Virus record (IMG/VR): IMGVR_UViG_3300037419_001314
Span: 1 to 24,219 of that record
From: a virus
Taxonomy: Duplodnaviria; Caudoviricetes
DNA length: 24,219 nucleotides
Direction: 5' to 3' (one strand)
Position numbers and translations under genes: made by a program. The notes beneath the pieces were generated by a model that worked only from the letters and a program-made list of their open reading frames with translations, was not told the DNA's origin and searched no databases. This document shows positions 1 to 20,748 of this stretch, piece by piece; within the stretch, counting starts at the first letter, position 1, and the number at the start of each line of letters is the position of its first letter.

Positions 1-261
1 GAACTGTTTCACCTGATTCCGGTACGCGCCAAGGGTGCTCTTGAGGACTCCACCAGCTGCCAGGCCGGACGGCCCGTAGAAGAAATCTTCCATGCGAGCC
101 GGAGTGAGGCTGCCAACCTGGCAGTCCTTATTGAACGCTGCCAGCCGGTTGAGCACGCTCCGATAGTTGCGCTTGAAGTTCGGCGCGTCGGCCCGCCTCA
201 TGCGCTGCCCGATGAACTCCGATGCAGCCTCGCTGATCCTCGGCGTTGTACGTCTCGCCAC
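1..261 (-). CDS. Probable tyrosine integrase, N-terminal part (runs off the window)
   Basis: Manual translation from GTG at 261: MARRTTPRISEAASEFIGQRMRRADAPNFKRNYRSVLNRLAAFNKDCQVGSLTPARMEDFFYGPSGLAAGGVLKSTLGAYRNQVKQF. This resembles a core-binding (SAM-like) domain and is divergent from the repressor. The catalytic domain is not visible. Confidence 0.65.
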   Translation of the reverse strand, partial: MARRTTPRISEAASEFIGQRMRRADAPNFKRNYRSVLNRLAAFNKDCQVGSLTPARMEDFFYGPSGLAAGGVLKSTLGAYRNQVKQF

Positions 262-489
262 AGTCCCCAACCTCTCATTGAATCTAGCCGCTGAACCTCT
301 ACGTTGGTCACGTAAAGTCGCAGGTCAGGGCCCCGGTAACTACGATTGGTTACTATACATGAACCTAGACTTTTCGACAAGTACCTACCCCTGCCTGACC
401 TGCACGTTTGCCCAGCTTATCAGCCAAAGTCTCGCACGATGTGACCCCAGCGGAGCCGGGTACTAGGATTGAGCCTCTCACCGTACTCA

Positions 490-593: not shown

Positions 594-1058
594 ATGCCTG
601 CTCAAAGGCAGCTTCCGACCATTGACGTTCTGCTGAAGCATCGTGAACGGGGGATGAGTTATGACGAGATTGCTGAGCTTTACGGCGTAACCAAAGGTGC
701 CGTCTATCTGCAATTGCGTGACGCGGGTAGGACTAAGCAGCGCCCAGACAACTCTCACCTAATGCCCGCTGGAGGCGTAGCCACTCAGCACCAGCACGCT
801 CATCCTGCGATGATGCTTCGCGTTCAGGGCCGGTTGGACCGGGGAGAGAAGGACATTCCGCCTGTGAAGATTCGCCAGCTTCATAAGTGGTTGCGCGAGC
901 TTGAGGAAAAGAACCTGATCCTTGACTATCACCAGGATTGCCCTCCGAATCCCGGCAGCCCGAAGACCGGGGGGTGGTTCTACTCCCAGAGGAAGCCTAG
1001 TGATGGTGACCGGCTGATGCGTTACCAGACGCAGAAGGAAGCCGACGAAGCCAGCTAG
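594..1058 (+). CDS. Immunity repressor-like HTH protein
   Basis: ATG 594 after GGAAGGGG; HTH GMSYDEIAELYGVTKGAVYLQL; C-terminal YHQDCPPNPGSPKTGGWFYSQR resembles actinophage cluster A-type repressors; adjacent to the integrase. Confidence 0.8.
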   Translation: MPAQRQLPTIDVLLKHRERGMSYDEIAELYGVTKGAVYLQLRDAGRTKQRPDNSHLMPAGGVATQHQHAHPAMMLRVQGRLDRGEKDIPPVKIRQLHKWLRELEEKNLILDYHQDCPPNPGSPKTGGWFYSQRKPSDGDRLMRYQTQKEADEAS

Positions 1059-1291: not shown

Positions 1292-1390
1292 TGTAAGGCA
1301 GTGAGCATGGCAATAGCCCGGACTGACCAGCCGGGGCCGTGTAAACGCTGCCGACCCCTGTCAGCGAGAGAAACGGGAACCCACTTACTC

Positions 1391-13888: not shown

Positions 13889-14154
13889 CTGGAATGGAAG
13901 CACGCTGTAAGCACTATCGAGAGAAGCTGGTTGAGCCGAAGACTCCGACCTACGCGACGATCATTCCCGACCGATACCAGCAGCCGGTAAAGCTGCATAT
14001 GGGTATTGGTCAGGCTAAAGCGGCTATCGCTTACACCTATTGGTCTGGTGCTCGCGGAGGCGAGCTTTACCAGAAGACGGCTGAGGGTTGGGAATTGCTG
14101 TATCGCGTCGAGCGTGGAACGGCTACGGCTGACCTGCCTTGGAAGAGCAAGTAA
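13885..14154 (+). CDS. Hypothetical protein
   Basis: ATGA overlap; 89 aa. Confidence 0.7.
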   Translation: MTGMEARCKHYREKLVEPKTPTYATIIPDRYQQPVKLHMGIGQAKAAIAYTYWSGARGGELYQKTAEGWELLYRVERGTATADLPWKSK

Positions 14155-14316
14155 CCTAGCGTCACGGATCGCTATGCCGGCAGTCACGCTACGTGAAATT
14201 TAGTGATCTGCCTCAGACCGTTTAAACTGTGTGACACCCTTCCGACTCTCGCTGACACTTGAGGAAGATGGGCGCGGGCCCCGCTAGCTTCGGCTGGTCG
14301 GGGCCCGCTTTCGTTT
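14155..14316 (+). ncRNA. Candidate structured 3'-UTR-derived small RNA with an antisense loop
   Basis: Stems GTCAC/GTGAC, GGATCGCTA/TAGTGATCT, TCACG/CGTGA; CTTCC/GGAAG closes a loop that contains CTCTCGCTGACA; ends in a terminator. Confidence 0.5.
14274..14316 (+). terminator. Intrinsic terminator ending the replication/middle operon
   Basis: GCGGGCCCCG-CTAGC-TTCG-GCTGG-T-CGGGGCCCGC then TTTCGTTT. Confidence 0.8.
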
Positions 14317-14332
14317 ACCCTGATACTACGAT

Positions 14333-14361
14333 TGGACACGCCAGTCATGCTCCTGTATAGT
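14333..14361 (+). promoter_or_regulatory. SigA-type promoter
   Basis: TGGACA-N17-TATAGT. Confidence 0.65.
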
Positions 14362-14493
14362 TTGCGACGGATTGAACCACACGGCGAGCTGCGGCGGGGC
14401 CGGTAGGGGTTAAACCAACCCTGCCCATTTTCAGACCGGACCGTGTAAACAGCCTCTGTTACAAACCTGTGATCTGAATATTCGGGTTCTAGC

Positions 14494-14540
14494 TAGACGT
14501 TGATACTCGTATTGGGTAATGTTCTGTCTGTCAGCGAGAG
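14494..14540 (+). promoter_or_regulatory. Cassette promoter plus leader box
   Basis: TAGACG-N17-TAATGT then TGTCAGCGAGAG (14529-14540). Confidence 0.6.
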
Positions 14541-14565: not shown

Positions 14566-15474
14566 ATGGCAATCCAGACCCTCACCTGCCAGAACATTGA
14601 GTGCGGCAAGACTTGGACCCGGATTGCCACCGTAGGCCGTCCGCCGCTTTACTGCGACGACTGCAAGGGTAAGGCTTTCAAGGCCGAGGCTGAGGCGGAG
14701 GTTGCCACGATCGGTGACGCGCCGGTCCGCCACAAGGAATACGCAACCGTGATCGCCGTAGCCAAGACTCGCATTCCGGTCATGCTGGTAGGCCCTGCCG
14801 GTTCCGGCAAGACCACGATTGCTCGCCAGATCGCGGAAGACTTGGACCTGCCGCACTACATTGAGTCCTGCAACCCGCAGATGACCAAGTGGGATCTGAT
14901 GGGGTTCGTTGGCCCTAACGGGAACTACGTTCCCGGCATCATCCGTGACGCTTTCGAACACGGCGGAATTGTCCTGCTGGACGAGATGGACGCTTCGAAC
15001 CCGGCTCTGCTGGTCTCGATCAACAATATTGCAGCCTGCTCCGTGGGCGAGACCGTGAACTTCCCTGACGGAACTTCGATTCCGAAGCACGAGGACTTCA
15101 TCCTGATTGCCGGTTGCAACACCTTCGGTGACGGAGCTTCGGAGCAGTACGTTGGTCGTGAGGTTCTGGACGCTGCGACCCTTGACCGGTTCGCTTGCAT
15201 TGAATTCGGTTATGACGAAGCGCTTGAGCGTCGGCTTGCTGGTGACGACATGCGCGAGTGGGTTGGGTTTGTTCAGGCTGTGCGCGCCACTGTCGCCGAG
15301 CTTGGAATTGACCTGCTGGTCACGCCGCGCGCCACGATCAACGGAGCGAAGCTCCTGCGGGCCGGAATGGACCGTAAGACGGTTGAGGCTCTGACTGTCT
15401 GGAAGGGGGTTTCCCCGGACGCTAAGCGCTCTATCGTGGCTTCCCTGGCCCAGCGTCAGCGCTTCGCTTCCTGA
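14566..15474 (+). CDS. MoxR/CbbQ/CobS-like AAA+ ATPase with an N-terminal zinc ribbon
   Basis: C-x4-C...C-x2-C; Walker A GPAGSGKT; Walker B LLDEMD; LDAATLDRF; TPRA. Confidence 0.88.
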   Translation: MAIQTLTCQNIECGKTWTRIATVGRPPLYCDDCKGKAFKAEAEAEVATIGDAPVRHKEYATVIAVAKTRIPVMLVGPAGSGKTTIARQIAEDLDLPHYIESCNPQMTKWDLMGFVGPNGNYVPGIIRDAFEHGGIVLLDEMDASNPALLVSINNIAACSVGETVNFPDGTSIPKHEDFILIAGCNTFGDGASEQYVGREVLDAATLDRFACIEFGYDEALERRLAGDDMREWVGFVQAVRATVAELGIDLLVTPRATINGAKLLRAGMDRKTVEALTVWKGVSPDAKRSIVASLAQRQRFAS

Positions 15475-15511: not shown

Positions 15512-15559
15512 TTGACCTATACGTTGATCCTATGATTGAATCTCTCTTGTCAGCGGGAA
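15512..15559 (+). promoter_or_regulatory. Cassette promoter plus leader box
   Basis: TTGACC-N18-TTGAAT (atypical -10), operator at 15517-15527, TGTCAGCGGGAA at 15548-15559. Confidence 0.5.
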
Positions 15560-15581: not shown

Positions 15582-16421
15582 ATGGCGATCATTGAGCGCA
15601 AGTGGAACAGCCTCGCGGAATTCATTGACTACGCGAGCGGGCCGTCCGCGATGCAGTTCGGGGACCGTTCTAGCCGTCGCTCTGACTCGTCTTACGGTGG
15701 CGGATTCTTCGGCACCGCGAACTACAGCGAGGCTGAGGCTCTGGCTTTCGCTTGGAAGGACGGCGCTGAGCGTATCGAGCGGGTACGGATTAAGGCCGCT
15801 CCGAAGGGTCAGCGGAAGCGCCAGGAAGCCACCCTTCGGGAGGTTGGCCCCGGAACCCTGAACATGGGCAATTACCTCACCGGTCACCCTCAGCCCTATG
15901 TGGTCATGACCGATGGACAGCGGATTAAGCCCGGTCGGAAAATCGTTCGAATCATGCTGAACGTCTGCGTCTCTGGTGGCGTTTCCGCCGCCACGATTGA
16001 GCGTCGTGGGGCCGGAGTTATGGCGCTGGCAGCTGCGCTTGAGGCTGCGGGCCGTCGCGTAGAAATCTCGGTCGGCATGGGGAATGGCTGGAAGAGCCAG
16101 GGTGATTTCTTGGATTACCGGATTCTCGTCAAGGGTGCCGCCGCGAAGCTGAACCCGCTTACGGTGGCTTTCGCTGTAGCTCACCCGAGCATGCTTCGCC
16201 GGTTCTTTTTCTCCGCTATGGAGCGTGAAGACGCTGCGACTCGCCGGAAGTTTGGGGCCCGTTCTGGTGGCGGTTACGGCTACGTGGCTGAGCTTGAGAC
16301 TGACGCTGACGTGATCTATCTCGGCGGGGCCATGATGTACGACTCGGCTTGGGAGTCTGACGCAGCTACGGCTAAATGGGTTCGTGAGCAGTGCGAGGCG
16401 CAAGGCGTGAAGTTCGCCTGA
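15582..16421 (+). CDS. vWA-like partner of the AAA ATPase
   Basis: IVRIMLNVCVSGGV beta-strand with a degenerate MIDAS, LEAAGRRVEI, AHPSMLRR; follows a MoxR-type ATPase. Confidence 0.6.
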   Translation: MAIIERKWNSLAEFIDYASGPSAMQFGDRSSRRSDSSYGGGFFGTANYSEAEALAFAWKDGAERIERVRIKAAPKGQRKRQEATLREVGPGTLNMGNYLTGHPQPYVVMTDGQRIKPGRKIVRIMLNVCVSGGVSAATIERRGAGVMALAAALEAAGRRVEISVGMGNGWKSQGDFLDYRILVKGAAAKLNPLTVAFAVAHPSMLRRFFFSAMEREDAATRRKFGARSGGGYGYVAELETDADVIYLGGAMMYDSAWESDAATAKWVREQCEAQGVKFA

Positions 16422-16467: not shown

Positions 16468-16514
16468 TAGACATTGATCCTAGACGTTGATAGTGTCTCT
16501 CTTGTCAGCGAGAA
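16468..16514 (+). promoter_or_regulatory. Cassette promoter plus leader box
   Basis: TAGACA-N17-TAGTGT, tandem operators, TGTCAGCGAGAA at 16503-16514. Confidence 0.65.
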
Positions 16515-16538: not shown

Positions 16539-17189
16539 ATGAACGTCACCGCCACTCGGGAAGCCTGGCTCCGCACCGCGATTGACTACCTTCGCCCGGC
16601 TTTTCAGGAAATCGGGATGCCCCTGCCGAAGCAGATCTACATTTCGGTCGGTTTCGGTTTCGGCTCCCGCGCGGAGTCCAAGGAAATCGGCGGCCAGGCT
16701 TGGGCCCGCCGCGCGTCGGCTGACGGCGTTAACCACGTCTTCATCTCTCCGGCTATCGCTGACCCGGCTGAGGTTCTGGGCACCCTGGTTCACGAATTGA
16801 TTCACGTTGCGGATGACTGCCAGTCCGGCCATAAGGGCGAGTTTGCCCGCGCGGCCAAGGAACTTGGGCTTGAGGGCCCGATGACTGCGACGGTTCCTGG
16901 CGCTGAGCTTGCTGAGAGCATGGGCCAGCTGGCGGCTGCGATCGGCACCTACCCGCATGCTGCGCTTTCCACGGACGGCGCTGCCATTCTGGAAGGTGAG
17001 GATGAGGAAGACGGCGAGGAAGCTGGTGAGGCTGGCGGGAAGCTTCACTCCGGCCCGAGCAAGCAGGGCACGCGGATGTTGAAGGTTGTTTGCCCGAGCT
17101 GCGGATTCAACTTCCGCACTACTCAGAAGTGGATTGACAAGGGTCTCCCGACTTGCCAGGACGGAACCCTGTTCATCGTTGCGGACTGA
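16539..17189 (+). CDS. SprT-like zinc metalloprotein
   Basis: TLVHELIH, GHKGEF, C-terminal CPSCG...PTC zinc ribbon, acidic linker. Confidence 0.8.
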   Translation: MNVTATREAWLRTAIDYLRPAFQEIGMPLPKQIYISVGFGFGSRAESKEIGGQAWARRASADGVNHVFISPAIADPAEVLGTLVHELIHVADDCQSGHKGEFARAAKELGLEGPMTATVPGAELAESMGQLAAAIGTYPHAALSTDGAAILEGEDEEDGEEAGEAGGKLHSGPSKQGTRMLKVVCPSCGFNFRTTQKWIDKGLPTCQDGTLFIVAD

Positions 17190-17636: not shown

Positions 17637-17897
17637 GCGGGACGGTCCCGCAGCCCGAAAGGGCAAACCCCGAAAGGGGGTGGCCTAATGGCCGCCAACT
17701 CTGGTGTCACTTTCAAGCAGGACGGCACCGTGTTTTGGGTTCCCGCGTGGGCACCCGACCGGATTGTCACGCTGGCTTCCATGAAGCCGGGTGCCCGTAT
17801 CGTGGGGGGTCGCCCGCAGGGCTCGGAGGTATGGCATCCTTCGCTTAGCCGGTAACGGTGGCTGAAGCCCAAAAGAAAAGGGGCCCGAAAGGGCCCC
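17637..17897 (+). ncRNA. Candidate highly structured RNA (may also encode a 55-aa ORF at 17688-17855)
   Basis: About 10 hairpins or stems with GNRA loops, located between a promoter and a terminator hairpin. Confidence 0.5.
17880..17897. terminator. Terminator hairpin, possibly bidirectional
   Basis: AAAAGAAAA then GGGGCCC-GAAA-GGGCCCC. Confidence 0.65.
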
Positions 17898-17904
17898 TAA
17901 GGGC

Positions 17905-17952
17905 TTGACTGGTGGACTGAACCTATGATTGAGTAATCCCTGTCAGCGGGAG
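17905..17952 (+). promoter_or_regulatory. Cassette promoter plus leader box
   Basis: TTGACT-N18-TTGAGT; shares CCTATGATTGA with the 15512 promoter; TGTCAGCGGGAG at 17941-17952. Confidence 0.5.
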
Positions 17953-17967
17953 TATAGGAACAGGGAA

Positions 17968-18099
17968 GTGAGCAAGATGATTACTTGCCCGAATTGCGGC
18001 ACCCGGATCGGGACCAGCGGGAAGACTAAGCGACCGCGACACAAGCGGCGGGGAAGCTGGCTCCGGAAGCTGCTTCGCAAACTGGACCTCAAGGTCTGA
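17968..18099 (+). CDS. Small basic protein with CxxC (43 aa)
   Basis: MSKMITCPNCGTRIGTSGKTKRPRHKRRGSWLRKLLRKLDLKV. Confidence 0.55.
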   Translation: MSKMITCPNCGTRIGTSGKTKRPRHKRRGSWLRKLLRKLDLKV

Positions 18100-18117: not shown

Positions 18118-18723
18118 ATGCGCAAGACTCGAAACCTTTTCCTGGCCCTGGCCGTCATGGTCGCTGGCTTCGGTGCCAGCGCTGGCACCGCTCACGCGGA
18201 AACCCTAGGCCAGTATCACTTGCCGATCGGTAAGACCGTGTGCATTGAGGATCACGGCTGGACGCTCTGGGATAACGTCCTTCCGAATATCGCTTGGCGA
18301 CTCCGGTCCAACTACATCACTGACGCTGTAGTGCTGGACAGCTGCGCCAGTTACCCGGATAACCAAGTGGTCACTATCGCCGTTAGCGACAGCCCGAGCG
18401 AGAATTACTGCGCCAGAACCGAGCGAGGCTATTACCTGAACGGAGTAGCCCAGGGCCGAACCACGATCCGGGTAAACAAGGCGTCCGTTTACTGGAATCA
18501 ATGCCACTCCACTTGGAGCCAGCGGGCTCACGTCATGTCTCACGAAATGGGCCACGCGCTAGGGCTGGTTCACTGCGACTGCGATAGCGTCGTCGCGGCT
18601 CCGCAGCGATTCTCTATCCTGTGGTTTACTGATCTGGATTACAGCAACCTTCGCCAGATCTATAGCGTTACCCGCACGGCTCTTCCGGTTCGCACCACCG
18701 TTAAGGCTCCCGTCATCCGTTAG
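18118..18723 (+). CDS. Secreted zinc metalloprotease (metzincin/matrixin-like)
   Basis: Sec signal peptide ending AHA; HEMGHALGLVH (HExxHxxGxxH). Confidence 0.85.
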   Translation: MRKTRNLFLALAVMVAGFGASAGTAHAETLGQYHLPIGKTVCIEDHGWTLWDNVLPNIAWRLRSNYITDAVVLDSCASYPDNQVVTIAVSDSPSENYCARTERGYYLNGVAQGRTTIRVNKASVYWNQCHSTWSQRAHVMSHEMGHALGLVHCDCDSVVAAPQRFSILWFTDLDYSNLRQIYSVTRTALPVRTTVKAPVIR

Positions 18724-19811: not shown

Positions 19812-19858
19812 TTGCGTCCCCTATCAAGGTCTAGTAACGTTCCTCTTGTCAGCGAGAG
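19812..19858 (+). promoter_or_regulatory. Cassette promoter plus leader box
   Basis: TTGCGT-N17-TAACGT, inverted operator in the spacer, TGTCAGCGAGAG at 19847-19858. Confidence 0.65.
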
Positions 19859-19874: not shown

Positions 19875-20093
19875 GTGGCACGCAAGCTCGACAACAGCCC
19901 AGAGGCAATCGCCAAGGATGCCGAAGCAGCAGGGCTGAAGGTCCAGAAGATCCGGCACGGCTGGTGGATTTGGTACCCACAGGGAAAGCCAGGTCCGGGC
20001 GGGCGGGACAAGGAATGGATCAGCCGGAACGAAGACATTCGGCGGGATCGGCTGAACAACCTAGCGGGAGCGAAGCGCCTAGGTATTCGCTGA
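19875..20093 (+). CDS. Hypothetical protein
   Basis: GGAAAGGGA RBS; MARKLDNSPEAIAKDAE... Confidence 0.6.
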   Translation: MARKLDNSPEAIAKDAEAAGLKVQKIRHGWWIWYPQGKPGPGGRDKEWISRNEDIRRDRLNNLAGAKRLGIR

Positions 20094-20508: not shown

Positions 20509-20748
20509 ATGAGCGAAACTGAGACCAGCGAGCAAAGGGCTTCGGCCTATCCGGACGATGCAACGGCTGTTGAGTTGATTGACCAGCTGCGAGACATGGC
20601 TAAAACGCTGGTCACTCTTGCTGACAGTTTCGAGAGCAGGTTCGGTCGCTGCGGTGCGATGAACGATGAGCGCATTTGCGGACTGTTCCCCGATCACAAG
20701 GGGGATCACATTTCCCTTCAAGGCGGCGCGACTTGGCGAGACAACTAG
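20509..20748 (+). CDS. Hypothetical protein
   Basis: 79 aa with C..C..H..H near the C-terminus. Confidence 0.6.
   Translation: MSETETSEQRASAYPDDATAVELIDQLRDMAKTLVTLADSFESRFGRCGAMNDERICGLFPDHKGDHISLQGGATWRDN

Follow-up and report, generated by a model that had tools for sequence, protein, structure and literature searches.

The locus studied here raises the question of why one short sequence, TGTCAGCGRGAR (the box), precedes six start codons of a phage genome, and why a single exact reverse copy of it lies mostly in the loop of a predicted hairpin. The sequence-only reading of the whole stretch of 24,219 nt (the window) had proposed that a phage RNA first seeds on the leader box and goes on to pair with the ribosome-binding site (RBS), and this core idea is backed by conservation, covariation and co-folding. 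The window belongs to a temperate-type actinophage with an L5-gp71-like (Cluster-A-type) repressor, matches to which were found in 740 phage records and are, among the matches listed, annotated mostly as repressor.

594..1058, + strand: Cluster-A-type immunity repressor gene (phrog_357, E 1e-18), a separate, protein-level control

Other window genes encode WhiB, an exonuclease, a helicase, a primase, a sigma-like protein, a class II ribonucleotide reductase (RNR), Lsr2 and lysis functions. The best cultured matches of the RNR are from Streptomyces phages (64%), and one relative, G279, sits within a bacterial contig of the genus Streptomyces, where GC falls from ~0.72 to 0.63. Because G279 is embedded in this way and three further records (G003, G407 and G410) are classed as proviruses, the family is taken to be temperate, and the host of the window phage itself was presumably of Streptomyces type. 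No integrase family was recognised in window positions 1-270 or in the L164 ORF tested. Megablast of the window against 50,697 cultured phage records gave no match, and blastn against cultured phage records recovered only SprT pieces with 3-5% coverage.

Exact copies of the box were found on the + strand at 1359, 14529, 15548, 16503, 17941 and 19847, and on the − strand once, at 14246-14257. Allowing at most one mismatch, the window holds eight matches compared with a shuffle mean of 0.51 (maximum 3), and none of 100 shuffles reached eight, so that the reported arrangement of six + boxes upstream of starts and one exact − copy was confirmed; the eighth match is an extra reverse copy with one mismatch at 20615-20626, within a coding ORF. 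The six target starts lie at 1391, 14566, 15582, 16539, 17977 and 19875, with 16-25 nt between box end and start.

1359..1370, + strand: target box in the whiB-HTH leader (internal), 20 nt before the ATG at 1391; WhiB PF02467
14529..14540, + strand: target box of an AAA ATPase gene (14566-15474), at the predicted +1
15548..15559, + strand: target box of a DUF7192 gene (15582-16421), with G at position 9
16503..16514, + strand: target box of a SprT-like gene (16539-17189), at the predicted +1; the commonest target family in relatives
17941..17952, + strand: target box of a small Zn-ribbon-like ORF (17977-18099) and a metallopeptidase (18118-18723), with G at position 9
19847..19858, + strand: target box of ORF 19875-20093, at the predicted +1; a box precedes it in 12 of 17 phages compared

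The boxes at 14529, 16503 and 19847 begin exactly 6 nt after a TANNNT hexamer, those at 15548 and 17941 lie 11 nt downstream of TATGAT, and the whiB box is found ~66 nt into its leader; a box also precedes whiB in G002, G003, G004, G279 and G407. The position-9 G of the 15548 and 17941 variants faces U, for which wobble pairing is allowed, as had been anticipated. An early-type promoter that has no box (TTGCAG-17-TAACGT) was also seen at 17643-17680, followed by two small hairpins and then a short ORF.

The reverse copy lies in a region that had been put forward as one unit from 14155 to 14316. Comparison with relatives narrowed this considerably: only 14235-14316 is conserved, nothing is kept upstream of 14235, and 14155-14234 was thereby ruled out as part of the conserved RNA.

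14235..14316, + strand: 82-nt core of the predicted small RNA (5′ hairpin and terminator), conserved and aligning with 14 relatives
14237..14243, + strand: anti-Shine-Dalgarno (anti-SD) segment CCCTTCC, predicted by co-folding to pair with the SD of five of six window targets
14246..14257, + strand: anti-box seed CTCTCGCTGACA, mostly hairpin loop, with 11 invariant columns in 15 sequences
14274..14316, + strand: intrinsic-terminator-like hairpin with cUUCGg loop and U-rich tail, which folds in every prediction and has compensatory changes in relatives
14223..14228, + strand: candidate −10 TAAACT, 6 nt before the inferred +1; it overlaps a GTTTAAAC palindrome and is hence uncertain in this phage
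14129..14157, + strand: alternative promoter candidate CTGACC-17-TAACCT, read from sequence, which would give a ~153 nt form from ~14164

The fold of 14235-14316 has a z score of −3.57, which is mostly owed to the terminator; this hairpin (14274-14308 plus T tail) was missed by a simple terminator scan. The CTTCC/GGAAG hairpin described earlier, with the anti-box in its loop, appears in the minimum free energy structure of 14155-14316 (z −2.58) and is open in the centroid, which marks the helix as weak. The seed has a mean unpaired probability of 0.75. The anti-SD arm, which is of the CCTTCCCCT type in 14 relatives, is conserved and partly unpaired in an internal loop; its proposed complementarity to the target RBSs held in five of six co-folds, the exception being whiB, which is not paired. 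No ORF of at least 40 aa begins inside the unit on the + strand. No Rfam match was found over 14155-14316 at E ≤5, nor, at E ≤2, for the RNA loci of four relatives.

With regard to the origin of the transcript, a TANNNT hexamer stands at the matching place, 6 nt ahead of the hairpin start, in 18 of 18 units examined, and a TGGCTTCCGCCA-like block in the −35 region is found 18 nt further upstream in most relatives with the C-type seed (C-type and U-type being defined below), behind differing upstream genes. Since both elements are kept behind different upstream genes, the unit is likely to have its own promoter, which speaks against the proposal that the RNA is merely the 3′ end of the middle-operon transcript. 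A predicted promoter and terminator of its own and the lack of an ORF are features generally expected of a trans-acting sRNA. The window is without the conserved −35 block of its relatives, the RNA promoter having diverged here; the RNA could possibly start from the 14129-14157 promoter or arise by read-through, and longer RNA forms bind the targets equally well in co-folding. Further downstream, at 14333-14490, a strong promoter (TGGACA-17-TATAGT) with a CGCCA spacer motif is followed by a ~160 nt non-coding stretch that shares CCGGAC..CCGTGTAAAC with the whiB leader and is possibly a second RNA or a protein site.

Relatives were gathered by pattern and protein scans, which yielded 14 other records with the unit (L007, L014, L017, L021, L049, L071, L080, L131, L147, L151, L153, L154, L164 and L230); L099 and L109 repeat the units of L131 and L147 and were left out of the counts. 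Their shared proteins are ~45-68% identical to those of the window. In each of the 14, CCTTCCCCT..TCTCGCTGACA..GAAGG/GTAGG occurs once, with a GC-rich hairpin and a T run behind it, in a unit of 70-100 nt that lies just before the early cassette; 1-13 sense boxes accompany it in the DNA examined. Model R1 gave one strong match per phage, which for its training rows is so by construction. Double changes were observed in 8 of the 19 stem pairs of the RNA, a level that none of 500 shuffles attained, and stem covariation was 0.356 versus 0.153, with slid controls at ≤0.115, the figure being inflated by kinship. Meanwhile, the 11 seed columns are invariant as the paired stem bases change together.

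The search was extended in several directions. A SprT profile hit 1 of 401 genomes of the genus, 1 of 401 of the family and 1 of 401 of the class, each time G279. A stricter pattern scan of the whole collection returned 20 stretches, with family proteins only in members already known, and 107 matches to an A-type box added no family member except a locus from the box cluster of L141. Among loci with homologues of the upstream ORF 13885, of which 13 of 15 are other phages or near-copies ending early, no box system was found beyond the window phage and L131.

These data bear on the view that the box is an initially transcribed promoter element, with the reverse copy being a dead inverted promoter or a hairpin with a processing or termination job. 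Most boxes do stand at the predicted +1, non-target promoters begin with the similar TGTAAGG/CGTAAGG, and box positions 2-7 are invariant even opposite G, where wobble would be permitted, so part of the box may reflect a promoter +1 preference. Moreover, the record G413, which is 84% complete, carries two promoter boxes, yet an exact reverse copy was not found in it; box-like starts can thus occur without a visible RNA. Nevertheless, at the reverse copy a minus-strand −10 is absent in 17 of 17 cases, by which the inverted cassette promoter, named beforehand as one finding that would overturn the RNA reading, was rejected. Given also that 11 loop columns are invariant while the stems co-vary, that the seed co-changes with its targets and that internal boxes exist, we regard the promoter-element explanation as very improbable.

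Across the family, most boxes of the relatives begin 6 nt after a TANNNT hexamer, and the tag therefore coincides with the predicted mRNA start; box position 1 is T or C, in keeping with a +1 at the following G. The 122 boxed genes were sorted into 43 families, among them SprT (16), ORF 19875 (12) and many singletons, which indicates that the tag spreads over a changing gene set; starts were chosen by pattern, and some of the singletons are probably mis-calls. Internal, non-promoter boxes are also kept beside start codons, for whiB in the window and for one gene family in nine phages. Boxed genes were found to use GAAGG/AAGGG SDs in 55 of 76 cases, compared with 45 of 282 other called genes in nine phages, based on crude gene calls made for this analysis. 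The box-SD linkers vary from 0 to 60 nt, and 42 of the 43 linkers of at least 18 nt fold below −8 kcal/mol, versus a mean of 13 and a maximum of 17 for shuffles; at a cut of −3 kcal/mol the test does not discriminate (42 vs 36.8). Once the linkers fold, the mean effective box-SD gap drops from 17.8 to 6.8 nt.

When RNAs were co-folded with 103 promoter-linked leaders, at least 4 of the 5 SD nucleotides were paired in 80 of them, and binding to the window targets amounted to −16 to −25 kcal/mol. When 174 candidate window starts (median −5.3) were ranked, box regions took ranks 3-9 and 14, with two box-less regions outranking all six targets. Several leaders stand apart in their arrangement. In G005 only, the repressor gene's own leader starts with the box (13706, − strand). 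In G407, two boxed genes are inverted between the RNA and SprT (L140:7200-7830), and targets there consequently lie on both strands. A further CGTCAGCGAG-type box occurs on the opposite strand after a conserved GCGGTTGCGTAG stretch at L147:15595, L151:8175, L153:6672, L164:19731 and L131:13920, which may represent another class of tagged promoter.

Taken at face value, the conserved parts suggest how such an RNA could work. A separately transcribed, phage-encoded small RNA of ~75-80 nt would present in its loop a sequence exactly complementary to the 11-nt tag that early mRNAs carry at, or close to, their predicted 5′ end. The loop is predicted to nucleate on the tag, upon which the weak 5′ hairpin would open and, in the co-folds, the freed 3′ strand extends the terminator stem; the variable tag-SD linker would fold out as a hairpin, and the CU-rich arm would then cover the SD, blocking 30S loading and so presumably repressing the gene. 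That the element is a base-pairing regulator of some sign is very likely, and probably it is a trans-acting antisense RNA that blocks translation of the tagged early phage mRNAs.

The same pairing may have a different outcome, in which the RNA caps the first ~10 nt against 5′-end-dependent decay or opens leaders that sequester their SD, and thereby stabilises or activates the messages. Such a role would suit the position of most boxes at the predicted +1 and the boxed repressor leader of G005, as well as one conserved internal target family in which CCTTC before the box could pair with the GAAGG SD, several RNAs stretching their complementarity over that CCTTC. It accords less well with an anti-SD arm that is conserved, partly unpaired, fitted to target SD usage and co-changing in L148; the SDs of free leaders are fairly open (mean unpaired 0.61), and internal boxes would be unable to protect a 5′ end. 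We thus consider activation or stabilisation unlikely. An effect mainly on transcription after pairing with the tagged leaders, by premature termination or cleavage, appears very improbable: the P4 CI RNA is described as terminating transcription by pairing with seqA/seqC (PMC4825925), and many leaders here have a GC-rich hairpin right behind the box, but in the leaders inspected these hairpins precede purine-rich SDs rather than U tracts, and the anti-SD arm points to the ribosome.

Seed and tag have changed together. In two distant phages, G407 (L140) and G408 (L141), the RNA reads TCTTGCTGACA and the boxes have A at position 8 (C>U with G>A). Boxes of phages with the C-type RNA have G in 99 and A in 6 of 105 cases, while those with the U-type have A in 16 and G in 1 of 17, that G being wobble-compatible; the search pattern was limited to A/G, and sites within one phage are not independent. 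Anchoring the tally to promoters gave 71/74 G for the C-type and 7/8 A for the U-type. Conservation and co-variation of the loop in relatives, a check suggested with the original proposal, were thus both observed, as 11 invariant columns and the position-8 co-change in G407 and G408. In trees built from tblastn-hit fragments, in which L230 has no row, SprT joins L140 and L141 (95/98) and RNR separates them, and because these trees disagree the position-8 change could represent one or two events. The co-variation of seed with targets generally looked for in trans-acting sRNAs is accordingly seen in few independent events. In co-folding, the L140 RNA favours its own leaders (−11.9 vs −5.0 to −9.7), and the L141 RNA has no preference for its own targets (−5.9 vs −4.3 to −6.4).

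A more extensive change was found in provirus G410 (L148), which has the same promoter-hairpin-terminator layout with a wholly different seed and only SprT in common with the window. This seed pairs perfectly over 14 nt with its own SprT leader, followed by 5 and 6 more pairs reaching the SD, and the RNA-leader duplex reaches −27.4 kcal/mol compared with −2.9 to −9.6 for four non-cognate RNAs; this RNA has one target only. At L148:7790-8618 a minimal cassette can be read as promoter, antisense RNA, terminator, promoter and SprT gene, in a provirus that is otherwise unrelated. In type I toxin-antitoxin systems, an RNA neutralises the expression of a toxic protein. The L148 cassette, with one RNA and one gene in tandem and extended complementarity over the leader, resembles these, SprT being only a putative toxin; the layout, however, fits L148 alone, since most family members have many targets, and most other SprT loci examined are without such an RNA. 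A general sRNA-SprT cassette was also considered and rejected: 23 of 77 SprT loci have an antisense match of at least 11 nt upstream, and outside this family and L148 these look like chance, palindromes or other promoters.

Could the box instead be bound as DNA by a phage protein, either by the L5-type repressor as an operator or stoperator or by an activator, with the reverse copy an inverted site? The phage does encode an L5-gp71-like repressor, L5 stoperators are described as asymmetric, intergenic and oriented with transcription (PMC5712189), and a protein site would likewise change in concert across a genome. Yet a separate operator-like motif overlaps the promoters and differs between phages, whereas the box is constant. 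Seven exact copies of this motif, CTA(T/G)ACGTTGA, overlap window promoters (2251, 4080, 12566, 14493, 15517 and 16480 on the + strand, 1282 on the − strand), and it is a candidate operator of the repressor; at ≤2 mismatches it is not above shuffles in the window (21 vs mean 10.4, maximum 21). CTAGYATTTG-like variants occur in relatives. By a pattern written by eye from the same promoters, the motif was found at 61 of the 79 target promoters and at none of the 13 RNA promoters. A DNA site also leaves unexplained why each phage has a single inverted copy inside a covarying hairpin with an anti-SD next to it, why linkers fold out and why the L148 match is extended, and this reading is therefore quite improbable.

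Two further sequence classes accompany the promoters. The palindromes GTTTAAAC/GTGTAAAC/GTTTACAC, with 18 copies in the window compared with 0.33 in shuffles (maximum 2), often lie in promoter spacers and beside starts or stops, in relatives too.

1339, 2689, 4741, 5332, 6915, 8560, 9613, 10509, 12348, 14220, 14443, 15477, 16460, 17192, 17591, 20139, 20841 and 22358, window: copies of GTTTAAAC/GTGTAAAC/GTTTACAC

CCGCCA follows directly after the −35 hexamer, mostly at 18 bp spacing, in the whiB, helicase-operon, post-sigma and sRNA promoters (this class was noted in L007, L017, L021, L049, L071, L131, L147, L151, L154 and L164), and is a candidate site for the phage WhiB-HTH or the sigma-like protein.

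Returning to the antisense RNA that blocks translation, its place in the phage life cycle may be approached from these promoters. The lack of the operator-like motif at the RNA promoter (0/13 vs 61/79) suggests an RNA available in the lysogen as a backup to the repressor, a second lock on leaky early promoters, to which we give a slightly better than even chance. On the other side, the shared CCGCCA spacer, a location behind the replication operon and the box on the repressor leader of G005 would suit a lytic middle-phase shut-off with feedback on whiB, the chance of which we put a little short of even; the boxed repressor leader makes a pure lysogeny role awkward.

Among described systems, the P1/P7 C4 RNA comes closest in pairing. 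It is presented as a phage RNA of ~77 nt that acts in trans through two pairing regions, an upstream one for specificity and another that occludes the RBS. Changes of a few bases in RNA and target are said to set its specificity, and it works beside a protein repressor; it folds into three stem-loops, is cut by RNase P from a precursor and controls the immI antirepressor locus (PMC5320573, PMC8201110). The predicted pairing here is likewise in two parts, a specificity site and the RBS (80/103 leaders; five of six in the window). Unlike C4 as portrayed there, it has one hairpin and a terminator, and up to 13 scattered leaders tagged at +1. The Rfam model of C4 gave no match in 14155-14316 or the four relatives' loci, and instead of three stem-loops with a′ and b′ loops, an interrupted hairpin and terminator were obtained in 15 of 15 C-type folds. 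SviR of the PLE in Vibrio cholerae, reported as ~210 nt long with two seed regions and as also targeting the helper phage (bioRxiv 10.1101/2022.04.08.487710), is similarly a mobile-element sRNA with its own (here predicted) promoter and terminator; in both, several targets belong to the same genome, pairing (here predicted) is near 5′ UTRs and the RNA is conserved while target genes vary; the fixed, perfect tag at transcript starts differs from SviR as described, the two being set apart by description and not by sequence. The L5/Cluster A operator-stoperator system, whose asymmetric repeated intergenic sites are said to act at the DNA level (PMC5712189), shares with the window a homologous repressor and sites of that kind, but here another motif, the operator-like one, fits the operator role.

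The Cluster K SAS motif offers a further comparison, as it recurs many times, on the same strand, next to the starts of non-structural genes (PMC3203893, PMC11373665) and has one reverse copy in four K1 phages, for which a role as an RNA- or protein-binding site was left open (PMC3203893); the role is still called unknown in PMC11373665, where genes 92 and 93 are said to flank the site at which late transcription begins. With 13 bp and a distance of 3-9 bp from the start, SAS constitutes the RBS itself (PMC3203893, PMC11373665). The tag here is unrelated in sequence, separate from the SD, mostly at +1 and ends 16-25 nt before the starts, and the 13-bp consensus at the RBS was not found in it. 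In the portions of PMC3203893 and PMC11373665 available, no antisense model for SAS is given. In Adephagia, the single reverse SAS (L386:30683-30695, + strand, in the interval of genes 92-93) lies in a hairpin loop, with 10 of 13 bases unpaired; an invariant TAGACT hexamer stands upstream of it, and late transcription is reported to begin in this place (PMC11373665). Of six aligned cluster K phages, three keep an anti-SAS-like loop and in the other three it has changed or disappeared; it is seen in Biglebops and DarthP and not in Hurricane, Yuna and Marshawn. A de novo scan for 10-mers with many sense copies and one reverse copy recovered G002, G408 and Adephagia, and gave nothing comparable in the parts searched of Marky, Percival, Cassia and phiCAM. 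The loop-exposed reverse SAS of K1 phages as a similar RNA is a lead only. Full texts, mostly from outside subscription journals and as main texts without supplements, yielded no paper describing the element of the window.

Judged by sequence comparison, the element is real and conserved, a single hairpin unit of this sort being present in the window phage and in each of 17 related elements. It would add a new family to a known kind of antisense RNA, unusual in a regulon designed around tags at +1. Phage antisense RNAs that act on phage genes mostly control one gene each, according to a review (PMC12197685). If the antisense reading is true, a compact RNA here would use a standard 5′ tag to switch as many as a dozen genes, the set of which changes, and would complement the L5-type repressor with a second layer of regulation; the Streptomyces prophage family concerned was not found in the cultured phage collection searched (50,697 records). 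The natural variants, namely the C-type, the U-type and the L148 seed, may possibly serve as orthogonal translation switches for actinomycetes, and the role of the SAS motif, an open question in PMC3203893 and PMC11373665, becomes testable in Adephagia. More speculatively, and with more doubt than confidence, temperate actinophages may build RNA-addressed regulons, in which a tagged transcript start, a fold-out linker and a matching SD would place a gene under one master antisense RNA, tag and RNA would drift together like an immunity code, and the K1 SAS motifs, with their single reverse copy in a hairpin loop at the late start, would represent the same strategy reached independently.
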